Source of the DNA: Victivallales bacterium
GTDB taxonomy: Bacteria > Verrucomicrobiota > Lentisphaeria > Victivallales > SZUA-371
Assembly (NCBI GenBank): GCA_016936495.1
Contig: JAFGXT010000014.1
Coordinates: forward strand, 27,035 to 91,034
Direction of reading: 5' to 3'
Length of the DNA: 64,000 nt
Shown: positions 3,878 through 37,932 of the stretch, one piece after another
Layout: each line of letters starts with the position of its first letter
Numbering within the stretch: the stretch's first letter is position 1
Program-made: the position numbers and the translations under genes
Notes under the pieces: generated by a model
What the model was told of the DNA's origin: nothing
Seen by the model: the letters and a program-made list of their open reading frames with translations, nothing else
The model's database searches: none

Positions 3878-4824
3878 AGTCCATTTTTTCCGTATTTAAA
3901 CGCGGACTGCAAAAGTCCAAAACGGCGGTGTCGCGTACTATAGCTTCGGCATTCAGCGATGTGAAATCCTGGAATGAAGAAACATACGAAGATCTTGAGG
4001 CATCTCTTATAAGTTCCGATTTCGGCGTCAGGGCAAGTGTGAGTATAGTCAAATCCATCCGCGAGCGTTACGAGCTCGGGAACATACATACGTCTGCTGA
4101 CATCAGCGACATTGCCTGCGAGGACGTCGCGACGATTCTAAAAAAGAATCATCGGTGTATTAATTTCGCCACTTCCGGACCTACCATTATTCTGGTGGTG
4201 GGCGTCAATGGCAGCGGCAAGACCACGTCTATCGGCAAGCTCACACATTTATGGAAAAACGCGGGCAAAAAAGTTATGCTTGCTGCTTGCGACACTTTTC
4301 GCGCGGCGGCGGTAGAGCAACTGAAGCTGTGGGGAGCGCGTACCGGAGTTACGGTAGTTTCGGCATTCAAAGGTGCGGATCCCTCGGCGGTGGCTTTTGA
4401 CGCGGTCAGCTCGGCAATATCAAAAAATGTGGATGTACTCATTGTTGATACCGCGGGTAGACAGCATACTCACAAGGGACTTATGGAGGAACTGTCCAAA
4501 ATGCGGCGTACGATAGATAAAGTATGCCCCGGTGCTCCCCATGAAGTATGGCTTACCGTGGATTCAAGCTTGGGTTCCAACGCGGTCAATCAGGCGCGGG
4601 AGTTCACCAAAGTAGCCGGAGTAAGCGGACTTATCCTTACCAAGCTCGACGGCACGGGAAAGGGCGGTATGGCGGTGGCTATTCAAGAAGAGTTTGATCT
4701 GCCGGTATTTTTTGTGGGGCTGGGCGAACAACCTGATGACCTTCAGCCTTTCGACCCTGATTTCTATGCTAAAGCTTTGTTCGGTAAGGACAGTGAAGTT
4801 GCCGAAGAGGATGTTCAGGATTAA
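3874..4824 (+). CDS. ftsY: Signal recognition particle receptor FtsY
   Basis: SRP GTPase motifs GVNGSGKTTS, DTAGR and LILTKLDGTGKGG (FtsY-type). The start overlaps the nusB stop in ATGA (3874-3877). Confidence 0.9.
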   Translation: MKSIFSVFKRGLQKSKTAVSRTIASAFSDVKSWNEETYEDLEASLISSDFGVRASVSIVKSIRERYELGNIHTSADISDIACEDVATILKKNHRCINFATSGPTIILVVGVNGSGKTTSIGKLTHLWKNAGKKVMLAACDTFRAAAVEQLKLWGARTGVTVVSAFKGADPSAVAFDAVSSAISKNVDVLIVDTAGRQHTHKGLMEELSKMRRTIDKVCPGAPHEVWLTVDSSLGSNAVNQAREFTKVAGVSGLILTKLDGTGKGGMAVAIQEEFDLPVFFVGLGEQPDDLQPFDPDFYAKALFGKDSEVAEEDVQD

Positions 4825-4831
4825 GTAAAAT

Positions 4832-5851
4832 ATGCTCTCCGATAAAGAATATATGCTTGAGGCGCTAAGCCTGGCCGAACGTGCCTGGGGAAGAACAAGC
4901 CCCAACCCTATGGTTGGCGCACTGATCGTTAAAAACGGCGAAGTCATTGGCAGGGGGTGGCACCGCAAAGCCGGAACCGCCCATGCAGAAGTCAACGCTA
5001 TTGCCGACTGCCGTGAAAACCCGACCGGAGGGACTATTTACGTAACCCTTGAGCCTTGCTCTACTTACGGTCGTACGCCTCCATGCACTCAGGCTATCAT
5101 CAACGCCGGACTTGCAAAAGTCGTTATCGGCAGCCTTGACCCCAACCCGGCTCATGCGGGCAGAGCGGTAAAGATTCTTGAGGACGCCGGAATCGAAGTG
5201 ACTCACGGAATCCAGGAAACACGTTGCAAGCACCTTAATGAAGCATTTTTCAAATGGATAACGACTGGTAAGCCTTTTGTGCTGTTAAAAATGGCAATGA
5301 CGCTGGATGGACGTATCGCGACGGCATCGGGCGATTCCCGCTGGGTTACCGGCGAACCGGCACGAGAGCGTGTTCAACATCTGCGCCAGTGGGCGGACGC
5401 GGTTATGGTCGGCGGCGACACAGTCAGAAAAGACACACCATCACTTAATGTACGAAATACGCCGGATTGGGAAATCCAGCCGCGCCGCATCGTAGTATCC
5501 CGCAAGCTTGACGCAAATGCCGCCGCGAAACTCATGGCTCCAGGCGTAAAGCCGGAAGTCATTGCACCATCAAGCCCGATGCAATGGCAGGATGAACTTG
5601 CGCGCCTGGGAAGCGAAAGTGTGAATGCCATACTGGTTGAAGGCGGCGGTGAGCTTGCCGGAAATATGCTTCAGGCGGGAGTTATCGACAAGGTTGAATT
5701 TCATATCGCGCCTAAAATAATTTGTGGTCGCGGCAGCCGTCCGGTAATCGGCGGCGAAAACCCACTGCTAATGGCTGAAGCCCTTGAATTGCGTGATACA
5801 GAAATGAACCGCATTGGCAACGATTTCATCATCAGCGGATATATTTCTTGA
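4832..5851 (+). CDS. ribD: Bifunctional diaminohydroxyphosphoribosylaminopyrimidine deaminase / 5-amino-6-(5-phosphoribosylamino)uracil reductase
   Basis: Deaminase zinc motifs HAEVNAI and LEPCSTYGRTPPC, followed by a reductase domain (KMAMTLDGRIA, ILVEGGG). Confidence 0.95.
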   Translation: MLSDKEYMLEALSLAERAWGRTSPNPMVGALIVKNGEVIGRGWHRKAGTAHAEVNAIADCRENPTGGTIYVTLEPCSTYGRTPPCTQAIINAGLAKVVIGSLDPNPAHAGRAVKILEDAGIEVTHGIQETRCKHLNEAFFKWITTGKPFVLLKMAMTLDGRIATASGDSRWVTGEPARERVQHLRQWADAVMVGGDTVRKDTPSLNVRNTPDWEIQPRRIVVSRKLDANAAAKLMAPGVKPEVIAPSSPMQWQDELARLGSESVNAILVEGGGELAGNMLQAGVIDKVEFHIAPKIICGRGSRPVIGGENPLLMAEALELRDTEMNRIGNDFIISGYIS

Positions 5852-5860
5852 ACGCAATCG

Positions 5861-7414
5861 TCATTTGCCGTCTTTTTTCCTTTTCGGGTAGGGGGCGCCG
5901 TAAATCTTGTCGACGTCAATTTCCGGATAGAGCTTTTTAAAGCAATCCGGGCATACACCATGACTGAATTCAGCATCGGTATGTTCGCGGAAGTAGGTTT
6001 CAACTTCCTCCCAGTAACCATCATCATTGCGAATCTTTTTACAGCTTGAACATATTGGGAGCAATCCTTTGATGGTCTTTATCTCCTCAAGGGATTTTCT
6101 CAATTGTTCATTACGCTGTTCCAACAGACGGTTAAGCGCCATAAGTTCATCATTCATCACACCTACCAGATGATCCATCACCTGAAGATAGCGGTGTTCC
6201 GGGGCAATGTTGAGCCCATCGTTTATGGCGGTAACATCATCGGTTCCAATTTCCTCAGGTGTTTCAGATTTAAGTAATATTTCAAAACGGTGAGCGATGG
6301 GGACATCATATTCTTTCATCCCAACAAGCGTCTGAGTGTAATTGATATACTCGTTCTTTTGTCCGGAATACAAAAATTCACCATATGAGAAAAATCCTGC
6401 GGTCGGCACTCCATTGTAAAACATCTCCACTTCTTCTTCCACTATCCGTGGCAGGCTCCATTTACGGCAACCGCACGAATACATGAATATGCCATCAGCG
6501 GGAATGAGTTTCCATCTAGGAATAATTTTTCTGCGGTTGCTCAACATGATTTCAGCGCCGCCGTAACTAAAGCGCACCGATTCTCCCTGCTCCAAAGGCG
6601 CGGTCAAAACAATTGAACCATCGCTGTTTACTTCTGTTATTCCCCGGGCTATGCGAATCTGGCTGCGCGACGCATAGAGCGGAAAGTTCATTCCTCCCGC
6701 AACATTATCGGGAAAAAGCGTGCCGAAATATTTTTTAATCAGCTCCGCGGCGGGGAAGTAATCAAGAGTTTCCAGAGTATTGCCATTGCATCCGGTAACT
6801 TTGAATTTCTTTCCAATAGGGCGCCACCCCAGATTGAAAGTGGTGGTAAGCTTCAAATTTTGGCTATATAATCCGGCACCGACTATACCGTGTTCAATAA
6901 TTCGTTCTCCATCAAACACATAACTTTGCATGAACATGCCGTTGTCGCCTCCGGCACCGCCGATTATCGGGGTATAAGGGGTAACAGAGTTAAAACCTTC
7001 TATATAAGGCCAGCCGGAAACCGCTTTATTTTCATGACATCCAGATGAAAAACATACCGCAGCTACGGTGTCAGGAGCTTTAAGGTTTAGCGCGAGCATC
7101 GCCCCGGCTTTAAACGAGTCTGGATTGTCGGAAATGCAGGTTCTGATGGATGTATGCTCAAAAACCGCTACTGAAATCAAAGTCGAATGCTCAAACGTCT
7201 TATTGTCAAGAATTTCTCCAGTAGTCGTACAGCCGATGATTTTAGCATCCGGCAACAATTCTTTACAGGCAGTTTGAAGTGCCACAATATGAGCTTCAGA
7301 CACAATCCCGGAAAATATCTGAATCAGAATATCAGAGGCACTTTCCGTATTGATTTGTTTTACAAAAGCTTTTAGCCCGTCATTATGCTGAAACAGATGC
7401 GTATAATGTCTCAT
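5861..7414 (-). CDS. FIST-domain sensor protein with coiled coil and C-terminal Cys-rich CKKIR tail
   Basis: FIST_N-like block ILIQIFSG...AKIIGCTTTGEI and FIST_C-like block IIGGAGGDNGMF...GIVGAGL. These are followed by a coiled coil (LNRLLEQRNEQLRKSLEEIK) and then LPICSSCKKIRNDDGYWEEVETYFREHTDAEFSHGVCPDCFKKLYPE. AGGAGA lies 10 nt upstream of the ATG. Confidence 0.75.
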   Translation of the reverse strand: MRHYTHLFQHNDGLKAFVKQINTESASDILIQIFSGIVSEAHIVALQTACKELLPDAKIIGCTTTGEILDNKTFEHSTLISVAVFEHTSIRTCISDNPDSFKAGAMLALNLKAPDTVAAVCFSSGCHENKAVSGWPYIEGFNSVTPYTPIIGGAGGDNGMFMQSYVFDGERIIEHGIVGAGLYSQNLKLTTTFNLGWRPIGKKFKVTGCNGNTLETLDYFPAAELIKKYFGTLFPDNVAGGMNFPLYASRSQIRIARGITEVNSDGSIVLTAPLEQGESVRFSYGGAEIMLSNRRKIIPRWKLIPADGIFMYSCGCRKWSLPRIVEEEVEMFYNGVPTAGFFSYGEFLYSGQKNEYINYTQTLVGMKEYDVPIAHRFEILLKSETPEEIGTDDVTAINDGLNIAPEHRYLQVMDHLVGVMNDELMALNRLLEQRNEQLRKSLEEIKTIKGLLPICSSCKKIRNDDGYWEEVETYFREHTDAEFSHGVCPDCFKKLYPEIDVDKIYGAPYPKRKKDGK

Positions 7415-7499
7415 TATTCATAGTTCTCCTGCGATAATTATGATGGGTCAAGCGCATTAAGTCAAGCATTATAGTATTTTTTTATAAAAAATCACCCTC

Positions 7500-7654
7500 A
7501 AAAAGATCGGGTTAGACCTTCCATGAACCCGTCAGCACGCCTTCGGTAATATGAAAATCGCTGGAGCCGTTGTCGATGAAGCTTTCGAAAAGTATATTTA
7601 ATTCCAATTTACAAATTTCCTTATTGAAATTGAAGGTCTGCCCCCGATCTTTTT
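7500..7654. repeat. 155-bp element bounded by 21/22-nt imperfect inverted repeats (MITE-like or structured RNA)
   Basis: aaaaagatcgggttagacctt (7500-7520) versus aaggtctgcccccgatcttttt (7633-7654). The arms are complementary except for the central tt/ggc. Located in the divergent region between the FIST gene and glyQS. Confidence 0.4.
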
Positions 7655-7809
7655 TTATCCTTTTGGGTATTTTGTAGACTGGAGATTTGAAATTTCCAGT
7701 ATTGCGTCAATATTAATACCTTACAACTTTTGATGAATGCATAATTAACATAAGTAATTGAGGCGTGAACCGGAATTTTTTCCAATTGACGCCGGATAAA
7801 GGAAAACCT

Positions 7810-9135
7810 ATGAGTGAAAAAAATCTTGAATTGATGGATAAGATAGTATCTCTCTGCAAACGAAGAGGTTTTATCTTCCAGAGCTCCGAAATATATGGCG
7901 GTATCAATGGCTTCTGGGATTACGGTCCCTATGGCGTGCAGATGAAAAAAGCCATCGAAAAATTGTGGTGGAACTATATGGTCGAAAGCCGTACCAATGT
8001 TGAGGGACTTGACTCAACCATTATCTGCCATCCGAAAGTCTGGAAAGCTTCAGGTCATCTTGATCAGTTTGGCGATTTGATGTGCGATTGTCGCGGGTGC
8101 AAGGCTCGGCATCGCGTCGATCAGATGGAAGACCCGTCGGTATGCCCGAACTGCGGTTCAAAAGACTTGACCGAGCCGCGTGAGTTCAATCTGATGATGA
8201 AGACTTTTGTCGGTCCGGTATTTGACGAAGATCATACCGCTTATTTGCGCGCTGAGACCTGCCAGCCGATATTTGTGGATTTCAATCTTGTCCGCGTAGC
8301 CACCCGCCAGAAACTGCCGTTTGGTATCGCCCAGATCGGTAAAGCATTCCGTAACGAGATAAATCCGCGTAATTTCACGTTCCGTTCGCGTGAGTTCACG
8401 CAAATGGAAATGGAATTTTTCTGTACCGACGAAGACGCGATGCAGTGGTATGAATACTGGCGCGATCAGCGTTTGAAGTTCTACGAAATGCTGGGCTTCA
8501 GCAATGATGTCATCCGTACTTATGATCATGAGAAACTCGCGCATTACGCCAAGGCGGCGATGGATATTGAGTTCAAATTCCCCTTCGGCTGGGGAGAACT
8601 TGAGGGCATTCATCATCGCGGCACCTGGGATATGTCTCAGCATCAGGAGTTTTCCGGCGAAGATATGCATTATGTGGATCATGATAACAAACGTAAAGTC
8701 CTGCCTGTGGTGATTGAAACCTCAGTGGGAGCGGATCGTTCCATGCTCGCACTGCTATGCAATGCCTATGACGAAGATACCGCCGAGACCAAAAAAGAAG
8801 GTCAGGAAGAGGATGTACGTATTGTTATGCGTCTGCCGGCTATCATCGCTCCGGTACAGGCGGCAATTCTGCCACTGTCCAAAAAACTTAATGAAAACGC
8901 TGAAAAGCTTTTTGGTGATATGGCGCGATATTTCCGTTGCGAATATGATGTTACCGGAAGTATCGGCAAGCGTTATCGTCGTCAAGACGAAATAGGTACA
9001 CCTTTCTGCGTTACTTTTGACTTTGAATCGCTTGAAGACAATTGTGTAACCGTGCGTGAGCGTGATTCAATGTCGCAGGAACGTGTGGGCATTGATCAGT
9101 TGAGAATGTATTTGGACAAGAAAATTAACGGTTGA
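7810..9135 (+). CDS. glyQS: Glycine--tRNA ligase (alpha2 type)
   Basis: MDKIVSLCKRRGFIFQSSEIYGGINGFWDYGPYGV is the hallmark GlyQS N-terminus. Class II core motifs and the Cys4 insertion CDCRGC...CPNCG are present. ATG 7810 is preferred over the upstream GVG-type start 7765 used in the track. Confidence 0.95.
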   Translation: MSEKNLELMDKIVSLCKRRGFIFQSSEIYGGINGFWDYGPYGVQMKKAIEKLWWNYMVESRTNVEGLDSTIICHPKVWKASGHLDQFGDLMCDCRGCKARHRVDQMEDPSVCPNCGSKDLTEPREFNLMMKTFVGPVFDEDHTAYLRAETCQPIFVDFNLVRVATRQKLPFGIAQIGKAFRNEINPRNFTFRSREFTQMEMEFFCTDEDAMQWYEYWRDQRLKFYEMLGFSNDVIRTYDHEKLAHYAKAAMDIEFKFPFGWGELEGIHHRGTWDMSQHQEFSGEDMHYVDHDNKRKVLPVVIETSVGADRSMLALLCNAYDEDTAETKKEGQEEDVRIVMRLPAIIAPVQAAILPLSKKLNENAEKLFGDMARYFRCEYDVTGSIGKRYRRQDEIGTPFCVTFDFESLEDNCVTVRERDSMSQERVGIDQLRMYLDKKING

Positions 9136-9149
9136 TTTTCTGATCACGG

Positions 9150-9179
9150 GGAGCGGTGTTGATATAAGCACGCCGCTCC
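9150..9179 (+). terminator. Weak hairpin downstream of glyQS
   Basis: ggagcgg (9150-9156) pairs with ccgctcc (9173-9179). The following tract ttcaactt is only weakly T-rich. Confidence 0.3.
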
Positions 9180-9375
9180 TTCAACTTGTCTGTCGTATTG
9201 CTTTTATATATGTAATACGCTCAATTTTATGATATATACTCTTTTTTTCTTGACTGGGGTTTTAAACATGCTATATTTATAACCCATTATTGAGAGGATA
9301 AATGCTTTTTGACCGTTGCCGTCGGGGTTTTTAAATGTTGCGGTAAAGTGTCTTTAATTGAAGGTGTAAAATATT

Positions 9376-9948
9376 TTGAAGTCGATGATAATAAAAGAAT
9401 TTTTTCGAAATCCGCGTTCTACAGGCGCCGTGATGCCAAGTTCCGGTAAACTCGCAAAGGTTATTACATCAGAAATAGGTTTAAAATCGGCTCGGCGTGT
9501 TATTGAGCTGGGACCGGGCACGGGAGCTATAACCAGACACATTCTTGAGGGCATGGAGCCTGGCACAGAATTTTTTGCGGTTGAACTGAATGAAAAAATG
9601 TATGAGACTTTCAAACATAAATTTCCTGGAGTCAAGATCATAAATGAAAACGCCGCTTCGTTGCGCAGCATAATTGTGCGTGAGGGGATGCAGGACGTTG
9701 ATTTAATTATTTCCGGTCTGCCCTGGGCGTCTTTCGGCGCACCGCTTCAGCGTCGTTTGCTGCTGGAGATCACCGGCAGTCTGGCTCCGCGCGGTATTTT
9801 CACTACTTTTGCTTACGTACAGGGTCTGGCGTTGCCATCGGCAAGGGCTTTCAAGCGTCGTCTGGACAAACGTTTCGCGACTGTTCAGCGAACTCCTATC
9901 ATATGGAACAATATTCCTCCGGCGGTGGTATACCGTTGCAGAAAATAG
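9376..9948 (+). CDS. Class I SAM-dependent methyltransferase (phospholipid N-methyltransferase-like, COG3963-like)
   Basis: SAM motif I VIELGPGTGAITRHIL and N-terminal NPRSTGAVMPSS block. The track start is TTG 9376; ATG 9385 is an alternative. Confidence 0.7.
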   Translation: MKSMIIKEFFRNPRSTGAVMPSSGKLAKVITSEIGLKSARRVIELGPGTGAITRHILEGMEPGTEFFAVELNEKMYETFKHKFPGVKIINENAASLRSIIVREGMQDVDLIISGLPWASFGAPLQRRLLLEITGSLAPRGIFTTFAYVQGLALPSARAFKRRLDKRFATVQRTPIIWNNIPPAVVYRCRK

Positions 9949-10048
9949 CGTGCCGGCAGTTCAGGCACGCATCCTCATATTCCCTTTAAAAACGCTGGAC
10001 TTGTCAAGTCTGGCGGCAACTGTTGCTGATAAAAAATCAAAGCCCCTA

Positions 10049-10077
10049 TTGACATAATGCTGTCGAAATCATAGAGT
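10049..10077 (+). promoter_or_regulatory. Candidate sigma70-type promoter
   Basis: TTGACA (10049-10054), 17-nt spacer, TAGAGT (10072-10077), about 90 nt upstream of the metallophosphoesterase gene. Confidence 0.35.
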
Positions 10078-10163
10078 ATGCTTAGGACAAGAGTTATTTT
10101 ACGGTAATTCCTGTAGAAGACCTGGCCGTGAGATGATTTTTTGTATCTTCTTCGGGGAGGAGG

Positions 10164-10964
10164 ATGACGAAAAATTTTTTAGGAGTATTGTGCCGCATTA
10201 TGCGTTTGGGAATTATAAGTGATGTTCACAGCAATTATGAAGCTTTGCAGGCTACTTACCGGGAGTTATGCAGACGCGGTTGTGAAAAAATAATATGTCT
10301 CGGCGACGTCGTCGGATATGGTCCATCCCCTAATGAATGCATTGACTTCTTTGTGGAAAAGAACATTGAATCTATCAAAGGCAATCACGATTATTATGTG
10401 AATTGTGTAGAGAAAAGTGTTGAAGAGCTGGGGGTTACACCCAATGCATTCCGTTCGGTGGAATGGACGCGCGAAGCACTTGCGCCTTCACACAAGGAAT
10501 GGCTGGATAATCTGCCGTTTACGCTTACCCGTTGGGATATGATGTTCATCCATGCCGCGGTTGATACTGCTGAAGGAGAGTATTGGCCTTATATTTTTGA
10601 TATACATTCTGCCATGTTTCATTTTTATTTTCAGACCACAATGCTGGCATTTTTCGGACACGTCCATGTGCCATTGATGTTTTCCTGTCAGAAAGAAAAT
10701 AATTGTCCGCGCCCCGCTATTCGCATTGAAAAACTCAAAGAGCATTGTTTTGCGGAGGAGACAGAGCGGAAGTTTCTGATAAATCCCGGTTCTGTAGGAC
10801 AGCCTCGCAATCGCGACAATCGTAGCAGTTCATTGGTCTTAGACCTTGAAACCTGTACGCTCGAAGCGATTTATGTTCAATATGACTTTCAGCTTACCTG
10901 TCGGAAGATATTGAAATCAGACTTGCCTGAAGAGCTGGCGTTACGGCTTATCTCCGGAACCTGA
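10164..10964 (+). CDS. Metallophosphoesterase family protein
   Basis: Calcineurin-like phosphoesterase motifs GIISDVHSN, LGDVVGYGP and GNHD. An alternative start at ATG 10200 (MRLGIISD) is possible. Confidence 0.75.
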   Translation: MTKNFLGVLCRIMRLGIISDVHSNYEALQATYRELCRRGCEKIICLGDVVGYGPSPNECIDFFVEKNIESIKGNHDYYVNCVEKSVEELGVTPNAFRSVEWTREALAPSHKEWLDNLPFTLTRWDMMFIHAAVDTAEGEYWPYIFDIHSAMFHFYFQTTMLAFFGHVHVPLMFSCQKENNCPRPAIRIEKLKEHCFAEETERKFLINPGSVGQPRNRDNRSSSLVLDLETCTLEAIYVQYDFQLTCRKILKSDLPEELALRLISGT

Positions 10965-10966
10965 AT

Positions 10967-11425
10967 TTATTCATCTATCTTTTTCAGCTTATGACATAGC
11001 ATTGTACTGCAATCGACGATCAAGCGTATTTCATCTTCGGTACAATTTTTCAAGACAGTAGCGATTTTATTCCGGAAACGTGCGTCAATTTTCTTCATAT
11101 GATCACGTATTTCCGGTTTCAGGCTGACCAATACCTCGCGGCGGTTTTCTGCGTTTCTTATGCGTTCGACAATGCCAAGGCGGTAGAGTTTGTCCACCGC
11201 CGCCGACGCCGCCGAGCTGGAAAGTCCGGTATGCCGCATAATAGTTTGAAGAGAACACGGTCCGAAACGTTCTATTGTCGCCAGATAATTAATTTGCCGG
11301 GGAGCCAGACGGGCGATTATGTCATCCTGCTGGTTTTCCTCCCAGTATTCGCCAATACTGTCCCGCCTGATGAAGCCCAGCAGATGATGTACTTCAAAAA
11401 AATCATCAAATTTATTCATAGTCAT
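10967..11425 (-). CDS. MarR family transcriptional regulator
   Basis: 152 aa with a winged-HTH block LATIERFGPCSLQTIMRHTGLSSSAASAAVDKLYRLGIVER. Its start codon abuts the stop of the upstream MATE gene (shared position 11425). Confidence 0.85.
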   Translation of the reverse strand: MTMNKFDDFFEVHHLLGFIRRDSIGEYWEENQQDDIIARLAPRQINYLATIERFGPCSLQTIMRHTGLSSSAASAAVDKLYRLGIVERIRNAENRREVLVSLKPEIRDHMKKIDARFRNKIATVLKNCTEDEIRLIVDCSTMLCHKLKKIDE

Positions 11426-33542: not shown

Positions 33543-35057
33543 ATGCCGTACCTGGGGATGTCCTCAATGACAGAAGTATCGAATAAAAAAAGATTTTTAG
33601 CGGGATTTGCGATAATCTGGGCATTGCTGATAATTTTTAACATCAGGCAACTGGATAATCCGCCTTACTGGGATGATATTATTGGACTTCACGCTCAGGC
33701 ACTCTGGTATGTCAAGCATGATTTTAATGTTTTGAAGCTATGGGCGTCACCGACGGTCTACTATACATCTAATCTGTATCCGTTGGGGATAATGCCGTTG
33801 TTGTATGGACTTACGTATAAACTTATGCCTCCGATGGCAGTACATGTGTGCGGTCATCTGTTCAATATGGCATGTCTTGCCATGTGTGGTATGTTATGTT
33901 GGAAAATGTTACGCAGACGTTCATGGCTTATCGCCGGCGTTGCTTGTGCTGTCGCTCTGACCCAGCCTGTAATGGCGGGACAGACGGCGGCTCTGGGGCA
34001 GGAATGTCCACTTGCGCTGATATGTATGCTGAGCGTGTATTGTTTTTCACAAAGAAGGTTCACTGCGGCTTACTTGTGGGCAGCGGGAGCTTTTTTTATC
34101 AAGTATACCGGTATTATTTTACTGCTTGCCTTTCCGGCATACTGGTTGCTTATGTTGGTGTTTTCCTATTGCAGCAGAAGCGGCTCCGGTGTTGGTAAAA
34201 TAAAAAGACAGTTGCTGTATTCAGCTTTACTGACAGGAATATTTTGTGTCATAATGATTATGATGCCTCAGGGGATAAGCGCGGCGCCGGGACTGAATAT
34301 CAAAACAGCCTTGTTGCGTGCCTTCGCGTTCACCCGTACATATTACCCTTTGCTGGGTCTTTATGGTGTTGTGGCGATGATTGGAGCATTATGGTTTATT
34401 GTGCGGGTTCGTCCATTCCGGCGCGATATATTCACAGTGATTTTGCTCAGTATTTTCTGCTGCGGATTTTGTGTGGCGTTTTTTTATCACAGTCTACCAT
34501 TGCCGCGATACTTTACGACTATAATCTTCCCGCTTACTGTATTGTTATTTTTAGCTGTTCCCCGCAGGCTGGCATTAATTACAGGTTTATGCTTTATCAT
34601 TCTTCACATCGCCGCCATAGACGGCGCGTTGTTTCCCCGGATGAGAGCGATGCCGCGAAGCGGGGCGTTGCTTGAGCGCAGCCGGGAGTATCTGACTGAC
34701 CTGGAGGCAAACCGTAGACTGTGCAAGTGGGTGGAAACAAATGCTTTTGATCGTCCTGTTCTGGCGAAATGGCCATTTGTTCACATGCTTACCGTTCCGG
34801 AATTTGGTTATGTGTCAAAACCTTTACCGAGAGTGTTAAGTCCGTATCATGTGCATGATTGTTGTACAGGGGTAACCATACTGGAAGCGAACAATTTCCG
34901 GTTGCCGCCGGGGGCGATATTTATATATGCCGACAACGATTTCGAATATATGCACAGTCCTATCCGGTTGGTTCCGCGAGGCAACGTTAAAGTTCTCTAT
35001 AGCGACGAAAGTCTGCCTGGAGACCTGCTCATATACACGCTTCCGCAACGCCCTTGA
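33543..35057 (+). CDS. Polytopic membrane protein, GT-C fold glycosyltransferase-like (ArnT/PMT-like)
   Basis: About 12 TM helices. The first extracytoplasmic loop carries NPPYWDDIIG (an acidic DD motif as in GT-C enzymes), and there is a soluble C-terminal domain. Context: convergent with the GT2/WecD/WecE operon. Fold assignment was not verified. Confidence 0.55.
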   Translation: MPYLGMSSMTEVSNKKRFLAGFAIIWALLIIFNIRQLDNPPYWDDIIGLHAQALWYVKHDFNVLKLWASPTVYYTSNLYPLGIMPLLYGLTYKLMPPMAVHVCGHLFNMACLAMCGMLCWKMLRRRSWLIAGVACAVALTQPVMAGQTAALGQECPLALICMLSVYCFSQRRFTAAYLWAAGAFFIKYTGIILLLAFPAYWLLMLVFSYCSRSGSGVGKIKRQLLYSALLTGIFCVIMIMMPQGISAAPGLNIKTALLRAFAFTRTYYPLLGLYGVVAMIGALWFIVRVRPFRRDIFTVILLSIFCCGFCVAFFYHSLPLPRYFTTIIFPLTVLLFLAVPRRLALITGLCFIILHIAAIDGALFPRMRAMPRSGALLERSREYLTDLEANRRLCKWVETNAFDRPVLAKWPFVHMLTVPEFGYVSKPLPRVLSPYHVHDCCTGVTILEANNFRLPPGAIFIYADNDFEYMHSPIRLVPRGNVKVLYSDESLPGDLLIYTLPQRP

Positions 35058-35070
35058 GGTTAATTGAAAA

Positions 35071-36201
35071 TCATTGTGTGAAGAAGTCTTTCACAATACC
35101 GGTAATGTGTGAGACATCTGCATCGGTCAGTTCATAGTAACATGGCAGTCTGAGTAAACGTTCCGACAGTGCTTCTGTGTATGGAAGATGCCGCTCTTGA
35201 GGATGAAATTTTTTGCCCATTGGCGAGCTGTGTAGCGGTACATAATGAAACACCGCGTAAATATCGTGTCGTTTCAGGTGTTTGATCAGTTGCTCTCTGA
35301 CTTTATTGGAATCCAGCAGTATGTAAAACATATGCGCGTTCTGATTGCATTCGGGAGGAATATGAGGCAGGTGCAAGTATCCGGCTTCCTCCAGATCACG
35401 CAACTCACTATGATAATGGTTCCAGATGTTTATTCTGCTTGAAGATATTTTCTGACTTTCCTCAAGTTGTGCATACAAAAAAGCGGCCGTTAACTCAGAC
35501 GCAAGATAACTTGAGCCTATGTCCACCCAGGTGTATTTATCGCTTTCTCCGCGAAAAAACTGGGCGCGGTTGGTACCTTTATCCCGAAGAATGCAGGCGC
35601 GCTCGCGAAAACGGTCGTCGTTAACTACCAGAGCTCCGCCTTCTCCTGAAATGAAATTTTTAGTCTCATGAAAGCTATAGCAGCCGAGATGTCCTATTGT
35701 CCCGAGAAAACGCTGCTTGTAGGTGGCGCAGACGCCCTGTGCGGCGTCTTCAACTACTATTAAGTCATGTTTTCCTGCAATGTCCATGATAGTATCCATT
35801 TCGCATGCGACTCCGGCGTAATGTACAGGGCATATGACTTTGGTTTTTTCTGATATAAGCGATTCCAGTTGATTTTCGTCCATGTTCATCGTGTCCGGTC
35901 TTATATCGACAAAAACTGGCTTTGCTCCTCTGAGCACAAATGCGTTCGCGGTGGAAACAAAAGTGTATGACGGCAGGATAACTTCGTCGCCCGGTTGAAT
36001 ATCGCACAGAATGGCCGCCATTTCCAAAGCCGCAGTACAGGAATGTACCAGCAGAGTATGTTTTGCATGAAGATTTTGCTCCATCCATTGCGTGCATAAA
36101 TGGGTAAACGGTCCATCCCCGGCCAAATTGCCGTTGGCGACCGCTTGGGAAATATAGGAAAGTTCTTTGCCGACTATATAAGGTCGATTGAAGGGAATCA
36201 T
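35071..36201 (-). CDS. wecE: dTDP-4-amino-4,6-dideoxygalactose transaminase (DegT/WecE family)
   Basis: MIPFNRPYIVGKELSYI..., PSYTFVSTANAFVLRGAKPVFVDIRPDTMN, VHYAGVACEMDTIM, SFHETKN and DKYTWVDIGSSYL track E. coli WecE very closely as I recall it. The ATG at 36201 lies 6 nt after AAGGAG and overlaps the upstream stop (ATGA). Confidence 0.88.
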   Translation of the reverse strand: MIPFNRPYIVGKELSYISQAVANGNLAGDGPFTHLCTQWMEQNLHAKHTLLVHSCTAALEMAAILCDIQPGDEVILPSYTFVSTANAFVLRGAKPVFVDIRPDTMNMDENQLESLISEKTKVICPVHYAGVACEMDTIMDIAGKHDLIVVEDAAQGVCATYKQRFLGTIGHLGCYSFHETKNFISGEGGALVVNDDRFRERACILRDKGTNRAQFFRGESDKYTWVDIGSSYLASELTAAFLYAQLEESQKISSSRINIWNHYHSELRDLEEAGYLHLPHIPPECNQNAHMFYILLDSNKVREQLIKHLKRHDIYAVFHYVPLHSSPMGKKFHPQERHLPYTEALSERLLRLPCYYELTDADVSHITGIVKDFFTQ

Positions 36202-36899
36202 AAGCCGCTCCTTTTCCAATGCCACACGCCTTCGCGGGAAATTATTTCATAACCATTCTTTTCATATAAATGACACGCCTGTTTGTTCCCTTCCTGAGTC
36301 GCCACTGTCCCGGTTTTCACCTGTTTGGAAAAATAAAAGTTATCACATGCATTTAACAGTCTTGTTCCGATTCCTTTGCCGCGTGAATCCTTATTTACGG
36401 CAAGCAACCCGATATTTCCATCGTTTCCGTTGCACTTGATAAGTATCATGCCTGCAGGAGTAGCATTATCCATGCAGGCGAGAACAACGGATTCCGGATC
36501 ACTGATTCCTTTTTCAATCCATGTGCAATAGAGATCGTGAAAAAATGGATGCAAATCTGGATCCATGTTGAAGCGGGAACGCCATCCGGCGGCAATTGAC
36601 AACTCATGCATTCCCGGTATAAGTTTTTCCACCCTCACTATTTCTGCTTGTTCCGATGGCGTAAAGCCGGTTTTACGGTAAATGATCTTCCGGTCATATT
36701 CTACAGCTCCGCCGTCAGTTAGAGCTTTACGTTTAGCTGTGCTCAATTCTGCGGAAGTAAAAATATAACACAAATCGGGAGGAGAATCGTTCAAGCTTGA
36801 GAACAGTTCTGATGGAGTGAATGCGTCATCAACAACGATCTTTTCGACTTTGCGCTGGAAAAAAATGGAGTCCCATTCCAGATATGTTCTACTTATCAT
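36198..36899 (-). CDS. GNAT N-acetyltransferase, WecD-like (dTDP-fucosamine acetyltransferase-like)
   Basis: 233 aa. N-terminal LEWDSIFFQRKV resembles the WecD N-domain. The C-terminal GNAT block is IGLLAVNKDSRGKGIGTRLLNA. Translationally coupled to wecE. Confidence 0.6.
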   Translation of the reverse strand: MISRTYLEWDSIFFQRKVEKIVVDDAFTPSELFSSLNDSPPDLCYIFTSAELSTAKRKALTDGGAVEYDRKIIYRKTGFTPSEQAEIVRVEKLIPGMHELSIAAGWRSRFNMDPDLHPFFHDLYCTWIEKGISDPESVVLACMDNATPAGMILIKCNGNDGNIGLLAVNKDSRGKGIGTRLLNACDNFYFSKQVKTGTVATQEGNKQACHLYEKNGYEIISREGVWHWKRSGL

Positions 36900-37932
36900 C
36901 CAAATTTATCCTGTCTGCAATTATGAAAAGCGGGCGTTGTTTAACCTGATTGAAAATCTTTCCGATGTATATTCCCAACACCCCCTGAATTGAAATAATT
37001 ATTCCACCCAGAAACCATATTGAAAGGATTATGCTCATATACCCCATGACTTTTATGTATCCGGACATATATAGAATATAATACCATAATGCCACAAAAA
37101 ATGCGATCATAGAAATTATCAGCCCCATTCCCGCCGTTAATTTAAGAGGTTTATAAGAAAATGCTATGATGTTGTCCAGCGCCAGATCAATAAGTTTTTT
37201 CAGTGAATAAGATGACTTTCCATGTTCACGGCTCTGGTGCGTAACGGGAATCGCAGTTCTACGAAAACCTGTCCATTGAACCATTGCCGGAAAATATCTG
37301 ACACAATCGTGCATGGATATTATGGCTTTAATGACGCGATGGTTATAAATGCCAAAGTTAGCGATGGATGCGTCCTGATGCGTATCCGTCAGATAACTGA
37401 ATATCATATAAAAGCATTTTGAAGACAGACGCTTAAAAAAACTATCCTGGCGTATAAGGCGTTGAGCCAGAACAATGTCATAGCCATTTTTCGCCTCCTT
37501 GAAAAGTGCAGGAATCTCTTCCGGTCTGTCCTGAAGGTCACAGTCCATTACCACTATCCATTCTCCCGTGGCATATTCCAAGCCTGCGCTGATGGCATAA
37601 TGCTGCCCGAAATTGCGTGAAAAATTAATCCCTGCCACTCTGGAGTCCTTGCCGCACATTTCCGTGATAAGCTGCCAGGAGTTGTCCGGACTTGCATCGT
37701 TGACAAGAATCAGTTCGAAATCCTGAAATGGTTCCGCTGCTATGTCCTTTATCCGTCTGTAAAGCTCCAGCAGAAATAACTCGCCCCTGTACACTGGAAC
37801 AATAACTGAAAGTACATTTTTGCGATAATTATTCATGGACATCCATGTCTTTATTTTCTTGTTAATTGATGCTTGATCAATAAATAATTGAATAACAAGT
37901 TCTCTCTCCACGGCGTGGTTCGAAAGCATCAT
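36889..37932 (-). CDS. GT2 polyprenyl-phosphate glycosyltransferase (ArnC/GtrB/DPM1-like) with two C-terminal TM helices
   Basis: LSVIVPVYRGE, LVNDASPDNS, FSRNFGQHYAISAGL and VVMDCDLQDRPEEIP motifs, plus two C-terminal TM helices. The true start may be the internal MSMNN (about 37842). Confidence 0.85.
   Translation of the reverse strand: MMLSNHAVERELVIQLFIDQASINKKIKTWMSMNNYRKNVLSVIVPVYRGELFLLELYRRIKDIAAEPFQDFELILVNDASPDNSWQLITEMCGKDSRVAGINFSRNFGQHYAISAGLEYATGEWIVVMDCDLQDRPEEIPALFKEAKNGYDIVLAQRLIRQDSFFKRLSSKCFYMIFSYLTDTHQDASIANFGIYNHRVIKAIISMHDCVRYFPAMVQWTGFRRTAIPVTHQSREHGKSSYSLKKLIDLALDNIIAFSYKPLKLTAGMGLIISMIAFFVALWYYILYMSGYIKVMGYMSIILSIWFLGGIIISIQGVLGIYIGKIFNQVKQRPLFIIADRINLDDK

Follow-up and report, generated by a model that had tools for sequence, protein, structure and literature searches.

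A candidate lipid-carrier glycosylation module that joins a WecE-class transaminase to a predicted GT-C protein of an uncatalogued family in a Victivallales bacterium

What might a bacterium do with an operon in which the enzymes for an N-acetylated 4-amino-6-deoxy sugar are joined to a glycosyltransferase of the type that loads lipid carriers? The question is raised by four genes at positions 33543-37932 of a 64,000-nucleotide stretch of DNA (the window) from an uncultured Victivallales bacterium (GCA_016936495.1, contig JAFGXT010000014.1, positions 27,035-91,034 of the forward strand). The genes encode a family 2 glycosyltransferase (GT2), an N-acetyltransferase of the GNAT type, a WecE-class transaminase and a membrane protein of 504 amino acids (aa), here called X. 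We consider it likely, though well short of certain, that they form a lipid-carrier glycosylation module of the Gtr/Arn type, which would transfer an N-acetylated 4-amino-6-deoxy sugar to an acceptor in the envelope. An earlier interpretation made from the DNA letters alone (the sequence-only reading) had proposed a periplasmic decoration by way of a polyprenyl-monophosphate intermediate. This proposal is supported by the protein families involved, by the predicted glycosyltransferase C (GT-C) fold of X and by the co-conservation of the genes, with the donor, the sugar and the acceptor as its predicted parts.

Gene arrangement of the locus

The open reading frame check returned the four genes that the sequence-only reading had described:

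33543-35057, forward strand: X, 504 aa, polytopic glycosyltransferase of an uncatalogued family with a predicted GT-C fold; an alternative start at M9 (33567) is possible
35071-36201, reverse strand: WecE-class transaminase (NF008687, TIGR02379, identity to 4PIW), a putative pyridoxal phosphate-dependent 4-aminotransferase of deoxythymidine diphosphate (dTDP)-4-keto-6-deoxy-D-glucose
36198-36899, reverse strand: GNAT (PF00583), 233 aa, putative two-domain N-acetyltransferase and distant relative of WecD
36889-37932, reverse strand: GT2 (PF00535), putative polyprenyl-phosphate glycosyltransferase of the GtrB/ArnC type; an alternative start at M31 (37842) is possible

The GT2, GNAT and transaminase genes are translationally coupled. 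Both of the overlaps reported earlier can be read directly in the sequence: the TAG stop codon of the GT2 gene (36891-36889) lies 11 nucleotides into the GNAT gene, which starts with the ATG at 36899, and the stop codon of the GNAT gene and the start codon of the transaminase gene share an ATGA at 36201-36198 (junction ...GGC TTA TGA / ATG ATT...), with AAGGAG seven bases upstream. The transaminase frame is open from a GTG at 36225, and in the alignment to the WecE models residue 1 falls on the ATG at 36201. The operon converges on the gene for X, as had been noticed, and 13 nucleotides separate the stop codons of X and wecE. The G+C content at third codon positions (GC3) is 0.43-0.49 in the four genes, compared with a window mean of 0.506 +/- 0.043 and with 0.54-0.58 in the flanking genes. 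Equally low values occur in other genes of the window, and low GC3 was rejected as an island signal; it is at most a weak hint of co-acquisition.

Family and predicted fold of X

X matches no model in Pfam or NCBIfam, in Pfam even at E = 10, and at this threshold the Pfam families of ArnT and PMT (PF02366 and PF13231) also gave no match. A word-indexed search returned 14 relatives of X, none of which has a Pfam domain. When 1.84 billion representatives were searched with a hidden Markov model, 1,537 clusters of the X family were obtained at E <= 0.001, of which 505 were at E <= 1e-30. Judged by these sequence searches, the X family is real, moderately sized and uncatalogued.

The AlphaFold2 model of X, built with the family alignment, has a predicted local distance difference test score (pLDDT) of 88 and a predicted template modelling score (pTM) of 0.90. 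In a Foldseek search of the PDB, the top 27 matches of this model are all GT-C enzymes, the best of them at a probability of 1.00 and TM-scores of 0.45-0.51, and the GT-C matches comprise ALG12, ALG9, ArnT (5F15, TM-score 0.51), STT3, DPY19, PimE, PglB, PMT, Emb/Aft, ALG3 and ALG6. The family profile reaches PIG-M by sequence as well (E 7e-4). Directly after the first transmembrane (TM) helix, X carries the motif NPPYWDD (residues 38-45), in which, among 14 homologues, D44 never varies and the conservation of D45 is at least 90%. Other invariant or near-invariant positions are E154, K187, R322-Y323, the ERSREY stretch (378-383) and a WPF..MLT.PE.GYV block (410-424). Fully invariant among them are E154, K187, R322 and the ERSR of 378-381. 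The helices of the model, together with the positive-inside rule, suggest about 11 TM helices and a cytoplasmic N terminus. In this arrangement, all loops rich in Lys and Arg would be cytoplasmic, and the invariant charged residues and a C-terminal domain of about 145 aa would be periplasmic. The predicted topology is coherent, and it puts the acidic motif in a periplasmic loop, which agrees with the DD motif in the first external loop of the earlier description. The fold of the model and the acidic first-loop motif confirm, at the level of structure prediction, the assignment of X to the GT-C superfamily that the sequence-only reading had proposed. That X uses a donor linked to polyprenyl phosphate is suggested by its recurrent adjacency to GT2 genes of the polyprenyl-phosphate type.

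A relationship by sequence of X to the other GT-C-like proteins of the genome (P0021, P0022 and PMT_2) was rejected, as hhalign showed none (the comparison with PMT_2 being not significant), and tblastn searches of X against phages and plasmids gave no match. On contig C275 of the analysed genome, G000, lies a decayed N-terminal remnant of the X family (G000:C275:4637-4771, reverse strand; L002 1495-1629), which runs for about 45 residues, includes the motif in the mutated form NPPYCDD and then meets a stop codon. No further similarity was found downstream of the stop, and the match was rejected as a second functional copy of X.

The GT2 belongs to the polyprenyl-phosphate class by sequence

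The GT2 has a GT-A domain (PF00535 at 107.7 bits). Its residues 40-343 align with residues 27-331 of GtrB (5EKP, 194 bits) and with residues 10-313 of ArnC (9HWJ, 173 bits). These full-length alignments take in the juxtamembrane helices and the two C-terminal TM helices, and the earlier description of an ArnC/GtrB-type enzyme with two such helices holds. The GT2 carries DCDLQD, the counterpart of which is DADLQD in GtrB and DADLQN in ArnC (bioRxiv 10.1101/2025.01.29.634835). Since the GT2 scores under the equivalog cut-offs of both ArnC (NF007986, 194.7 bits for a cut-off of 529) and PgfS (NF047588, its best match in NCBIfam, 232.7 bits for a cut-off of 500), we assign it on sequence grounds to the polyprenyl-phosphate GT2 class (GtrB/ArnC/DPMS type) and not as an orthologue of a characterised member. 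ArnC takes only the N-formylated donor (bioRxiv 10.1101/2025.01.29.634835), which fits the need for an N-acylation step ahead of lipid loading.

PgfS is a streptococcal polyprenyl-phosphate glycosyltransferase of protein glycosylation, and the fold matches of X include PMT, DPY19 and STT3/PglB. These similarities would suit an acceptor of a different kind, with X acting as a PMT/TfpW-like O-glycosyltransferase on secreted or pilin-like proteins. However, a protein-binding domain of the TPR or MIR type is missing from X, no conserved target gene stands beside X in any locus, and the polysaccharide context of the homologue in locus L037 (see below) favours glycans. We regard a protein acceptor as quite improbable.

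Transaminase, acetyltransferase and supply of the sugar nucleotide

The transaminase had been called very WecE-like, and it passes NF008687, the NCBIfam equivalog for dTDP-4-amino-4,6-dideoxygalactose transaminase, with 614.9 bits for a cut-off of 375. It is 59.5% identical to Escherichia coli WecE (PDB 4PIW) over 373 columns and retains the SFHETKN lysine motif; ArnB-type models give it just about 225 bits. TIGR02379, which is named for the gluco product, is passed as well (600.6 bits, cut-off 435), so the models alone do not settle between the galacto and the gluco stereochemistry. On sequence evidence, the product is most likely dTDP-4-amino-4,6-dideoxy-D-galactose (dTDP-Fuc4N).

WecD is the best match of the GNAT both in NCBIfam (NF008212, 67.6 bits over model positions 9-225 of 232, cut-off 219) and in the PDB (2FS5, dTDP-fucosamine acetyltransferase, E 1.5e-7), where the alignment covers both domains. 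A second WecD model, TIGR02382, gives 43.6 bits for a cut-off of 195. Because the scores lie far under the curated cut-offs, we retain the earlier name of a WecD-like N-acetyltransferase, albeit a distant one, and do not call it WecD. Presumably, it would convert dTDP-Fuc4N into its N-acetylated form, dTDP-Fuc4NAc.

The search for rmlA and rmlB that the sequence-only reading had suggested found both genes, adjacent on contig C174 and above their cut-offs (493.8 and 503.4 bits), so that dTDP-4-keto-6-deoxyglucose would be available. The analysed genome is 88.8% complete, and genome-wide negatives mean "not found", not "absent". No match to WecF (PF07429) was found in the genome by a search that, as a control, found WecF in E. 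coli; no consumer of dTDP-Fuc4NAc of the enterobacterial common antigen (ECA) type is therefore evident. The genome contains lpxC and three genes of the Wzy_C family, which would make both lipid A and O-antigen-type glycans available as acceptors.

X and the sugar cassette recur together

Co-conservation of the genes, to which the sequence-only reading had pointed as a check, is found in relatives. Locus L027, from an uncultured Lentisphaeria genome, has exactly the layout of the window, with identities of 72% for WecE, 37% for the GNAT and 58% for the GT2. In L003, a single operon reads GT2-GNAT-WecE-X and is followed by a paralogue of X, termed Y (5211-11175); L008 has GT2-WecE-WbqC-methyltransferase-X-Y (4490-11114), L006 (= G094) has X-WbqC-GT2-WecE in one direction, and L007 has GT2-X. 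The transaminases of L003, L006 and L008 pass the WecE cut-off with 545-614 bits. The X family stands beside cassettes of GT2, WecE-class and GNAT or WbqC genes in five independent loci, and 13 of the 23 members of the Lentisphaerota clade, from several subclades, have a cassette gene within 2.5 kb of X. In the subclade of L025, L029 and L030, a different DegT gene adjoins X.

L003, L008 and L019 have their flanking genes in common (TMP-TENI, DEAD helicase ... QueH, Aminotran_5), and in L019 (5793-10051) the site is empty, with only Y, the resident paralogue of X, between the flanks. In Victivallaceae, two cassettes occur at one site between the DEAD helicase gene and Y, one a GNAT variant and the other a variant with WbqC and a methyltransferase. 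Because the two variant cassettes and the empty L019 share one site, the GT2, the sugar enzymes and X can be regarded as an insertable unit, and the site looks like a serotype-style variable locus.

The cassette is found apart from X, too. In G013, a GT2-GNAT-WecE operon is unlinked to X (60/32/64% identity), and in genomes of the phylum that lack X, operons of WecE-class and GT2 genes are found in L057 (7829-13066), L059 (7999-14492) and L061 (3339-8757), with the full trio in L059 and L061. Beside these operons are genes for large proteins with no Pfam match (609 aa in L057, 587 and 581 aa in L059, 846 aa in L061). The recurrence of the trio with and without X suggests that the substrate of the GT2 is the product of the transaminase and the acyltransferase, and that several terminal transferases, X among them, can take each other's place with such lipid-linked sugars. 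A 147-aa EamA-like membrane protein, a candidate flippase of the ArnE/F type, is encoded beside the operon in L057.

X itself was found in 16 of the 301 genomes of an evenly drawn sample of the phylum, almost all of them in the order of the window. Its closest relative (52% identity) is in Lentisphaerae bacterium SZUA-371. Named genomes with related loci belong to Lentisphaerota (Victivallaceae, Victivallales, Lentisphaeria), Thermodesulfobacteriota (Desulfosudis, Desulfobacterales, an Olavius symbiont), Planctomycetota (Pirellulales) and Auribacterota. In a maximum-likelihood tree, the Planctomycetota X clade is apart from the clade with the X of the window. In the Pirellulales loci (L041, L042, L046, L047 and L048), the X paralogues are long (600-980 aa), frequently lie three or four in a row and have additional C-terminal regions; no GT2 or DegT genes adjoin them.

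It is conceivable that the four genes make up no pathway at all. The product of the transaminase and the GNAT would then go to a cytoplasmic glycosyltransferase that serves an ordinary O-antigen or ECA-like polymer, the GT2 would charge the carrier with the hexose of a common uridine diphosphate (UDP)-hexose, and X would use a donor derived from UDP-hexose or some other one. The characterised polyprenyl-phosphate GT2 enzymes that we know of all use UDP- or guanosine diphosphate (GDP)-sugars. In the phylum, a WecE-class gene is often present where X is not (46 of the 301 genomes, against 16 with X), and solitary X homologues occur. Nevertheless, the trio of overlapping GT2, GNAT and WecE frames is met again in other genomes and families and moves with X as an insertion cassette, and the search of the genome for a Fuc4NAc transferase of the WecF type was negative. 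Such an unconnected set of genes seems to us a rather poor prospect.

Proposed mechanism and acceptor

For the Gtr/Arn-type module that we favour, the following route can be proposed. RmlA and RmlB would supply dTDP-4-keto-6-deoxy-D-glucose, from which the WecE-class transaminase would make dTDP-4-amino-4,6-dideoxy-D-galactose, or the gluco isomer, and the WecD-like GNAT would N-acetylate it. The GtrB/ArnC-type GT2 would move the N-acetyl sugar to undecaprenyl phosphate (Und-P) at the cytoplasmic face, the Und-P-sugar would be flipped across the membrane, and X would transfer the sugar to an envelope acceptor through its periplasmic NPPYWDD loop. The analysis supports the sequence-only reading in each respect that could be computed. 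The galacto stereochemistry, the donor nucleotide and its use by the GT2, the flipping step and the acceptor are predicted parts of this scheme.

The least certain part is the acceptor, which is most likely a surface glycan, that is, the core of lipopolysaccharide (LPS), an O-chain or another polysaccharide. An X homologue from Desulfobacterales (L037) sits in a polysaccharide cluster with GT2, GT4 and Acyl_transf_3 genes, which favours a glycan acceptor. The cassette variation at one locus, typical of surface-antigen diversification, favours it likewise. Since X is not accompanied by a deacylase, the sugar would carry no charge, and it probably remains N-acetylated.

A true analogue of the Arn system would end differently: Und-P-Fuc4NAc would be de-N-acetylated, and X would place cationic Fuc4N on a phosphate of lipid A or the core, lowering the surface charge. 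D-Fuc4N is the 6-methyl homomorph of 4-amino-4-deoxy-L-arabinose (L-Ara4N), and because of this homomorphy the lipid A idea remains worth testing. ArnT is among the best structural matches of X, lpxC is present in the genome, and an MsbA-like ABC exporter gene follows X-DegT in L030. In SZUA-371 (L010/L017), the gene for X overlaps one for a leaderless CE4 deacetylase, echoing arnD-arnT, and an orthologue of this deacetylase, 56% identical, is encoded on contig C71 of the genome of the window. However, the deacetylase family and X co-occur in no genome of the sample of 301 except that of the window; the family is found in 11 sampled genomes, including five of five in family f6, none of which has X. 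The C71 enzyme is PgaB-like and not ArnD-like, a deacylase is found in no X-linked cassette, and the similarity of X to ArnT is no better than that to ALG12 or ALG9. The CE4 deacetylase of the genome of the window, the only CE4 candidate, being PgaB-like, unlinked and of a family that does not co-occur with X elsewhere in the sample, was demoted from an ArnD-like partner to a weak lead, and we think it unlikely that X acts in this way. A bolder view would see here the first polyprenyl-phosphate GT2 that uses a dTDP-sugar, in an independent equivalent of Arn that does without a dedicated small flippase, modifies envelope charge or antigens and puts Fuc4N(Ac) on lipid A or LPS core in the Planctomycetota-Verrucomicrobiota-Chlamydiota (PVC) group and Desulfobacterota via an unrecognised GT-C family; we hold this, too, to be a doubtful prospect. 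The surroundings of the deacetylase gene are syntenic: G000:C71:19941-24206 (L050 4941-9207) and L010 2260-8057 both hold genes for RlmN, a PMT_2-type GT-C protein (557 aa), MgtE and the leaderless PgaB-like CE4 deacetylase, after which comes the overlapping X homologue in SZUA-371 and purB in the genome of the window.

Several observations weigh against the proposed transfer of an N-acetylated sugar by way of Und-P. We know of no characterised enzyme of the GtrB/ArnC/DPMS family that uses a dTDP-sugar; we infer such use for the GT2 of the window, and its sequence offers no proof. The scores of the GNAT are so far below the WecD cut-offs that neither its substrate nor its acyl donor is secure. 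Flippases of the GtrA (PF04138) and SMR (PF00893) families were found neither in the genome nor in the cassettes of L003, L006, L007 and L008. In the phylum sample, X is accompanied by a WecE-class gene in just 6 of its 16 genomes, and many X homologues stand alone, which argues that the X family is not restricted to a sugar of the Fuc4NAc type. Finally, a scan for sigma-70 promoters and terminators gave counts at chance level.

Comparison with known systems

Three-component extracytoplasmic glycosylation of the Gtr/Arn type has been reviewed and extended, including Und-P-pentofuranose systems (PMC11127046). With the Gtr systems (GtrA/GtrB/Gtr(type) of Shigella and Salmonella; GacI/GacL; CsbB/YfhO), the module shares a GtrB-like polyprenyl-phosphate GT2 and a polytopic GT-C protein whose first external loop carries an acidic motif, and it is likewise accessory and patchy, with variants at one locus. 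Unlike in these systems, the predicted donor comes from the dTDP-4-amino-4,6-dideoxyhexose pathway and is not UDP-Glc or UDP-GlcNAc, no GtrA-family flippase was found in the window cluster or the genome, and neither Pfam nor NCBIfam has a model for the family of the terminal protein.

The sequence-only reading had seen the logic of the Arn pathway (PmrHFIJKLM; L-Ara4N on lipid A) mirrored in the locus. The logic does fit, with a DegT 4-aminotransferase, N-acylation before loading, an ArnC-like GT2 and periplasmic transfer by a GT-C protein that has ArnT as a top structural match, and with Fuc4N as the homomorph of Ara4N. In contrast to Arn, the predicted nucleotide is dTDP and not UDP, and the acyl group would be an acetyl from a GNAT and not a formyl from ArnA. 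The module is without the ArnA decarboxylase, a linked ArnD and ArnE/F, none of which (ArnA, ArnD, ArnE/F) was found in the window cluster. In addition, the GT2 stays at 195 bits for the ArnC cut-off of 529, and X is outside the PMT/ArnT families of Pfam. Because no Arn-specific component is present, the Gtr-type three-component systems are the better comparison, and the Arn parallel stands in its logic only.

The closest published precedent that we found is wxc region 3 of Xanthomonas campestris and X. hortorum, which is needed for side branches of the 3-amino isomer, Fuc3NAc, on the rhamnan O-antigen (PMC4878081, PMC12573098, PMC2238763). The region contains wxcK (aminotransferase), wxcL (glycosyltransferase), wxcM (acetyltransferase/isomerase), wxcN (small membrane protein) and wxcO, and wxcK and wxcN mutants lose FucNAc (PMC4878081, PMC12573098, PMC2238763). 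In both systems, an aminotransferase for a dTDP-amino-6-deoxyhexose and an acetyltransferase are combined with a glycosyltransferase and an integral membrane protein of large size, and the outcome, which for the module is a prediction, would be a side branch of one N-acetyl-amino-deoxy sugar. WxcL is said to be GtrB-like. The wxc region differs in making the 3-amino isomer, with an FdtB-type WxcK and a bifunctional WxcM, and in having the small membrane protein WxcN; WxcO is an integral membrane protein of about 750 aa. The claim that the combination is no described pathway consequently stands in part: our literature search found no paper on Und-P-Fuc4NAc or on a polyprenyl-phosphate GT2 fed by a dTDP-sugar, but wxc region 3 comes near with the 3-amino isomer. 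Literature searches on WbqC and on Lentisphaerae LPS returned nothing useful, and a paper on the lipooligosaccharide of Akkermansia makes no mention of 4-amino-4,6-dideoxy sugars.

With the dTDP-Fuc4NAc branch of ECA synthesis (RmlA/RmlB, WecE, WecD, WecF), the module has in common a WecE-class transaminase and a GNAT that is nearest to WecD. Unlike in ECA synthesis, there is no WecF, WzyE or WzxE context around the module, and the sugar is predicted to be loaded onto Und-P by the GT2 and not onto lipid II, linked to undecaprenyl diphosphate, by WecF. The observation of the sequence-only reading that the cluster contains no WecF/WzyE-type machinery, deacylase or flippase proved correct, and the genome-wide searches with PF07429, PF04138 and PF00893 were negative as well. 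What differs from the known systems is a predicted dTDP-derived donor, the lack of a recognisable small flippase among the genes found and a terminal GT-C protein from a family without a model.

The proposed mechanism follows a familiar three-component scheme, and the gain is in annotation and enzymology, not in a new principle. It gives a testable function to an unannotated membrane-protein family and predicts a new class of donor, dTDP-derived N-acyl-4-amino-4,6-dideoxyhexoses, for enzymes of the GtrB/ArnC type. Lentisphaerota appear to have several pairs of a GT2 and a GT-C protein, and they swap sugar cassettes at a fixed site, as in surface-antigen diversification. Such cassette swapping is relevant to recognition by phages and hosts in PVC bacteria of the gut and of sediments.

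Other GT2 and GT-C pairs in the genome

Two further paralogues of the GtrB/ArnC-like GT2 are present in the genome, on contigs C194 and C325. The genome probably has three pairs of a GT2 and a GT-C protein, and at least two, and these further pairs lend support to a pairing of X with the neighbouring GT2 of the window. The GT2 on C194 (G000:C194:10725-13086; L052 1504-3868) is 35% identical to that of the window, and its gene overlaps one for a polytopic protein of 468 aa. This protein has no Pfam match and belongs to a family of 17 members (Lentisphaerae) with a conserved NDxDNTW after the first TM helix. The model of the family has a pLDDT of 90.4, and its fold matches are all GT-C enzymes (ALG12 at a TM-score of 0.60, ArnT at 0.57), by which it is predicted to be another uncatalogued GT-C family. 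The GT2 on C325 (G000:C325:3825-6248; L053) is 28% identical to that of the window; its gene adjoins one for a polytopic protein that has at least 485 aa and no annotation, and has an RVT_1 (reverse-transcriptase) gene on its other flank.

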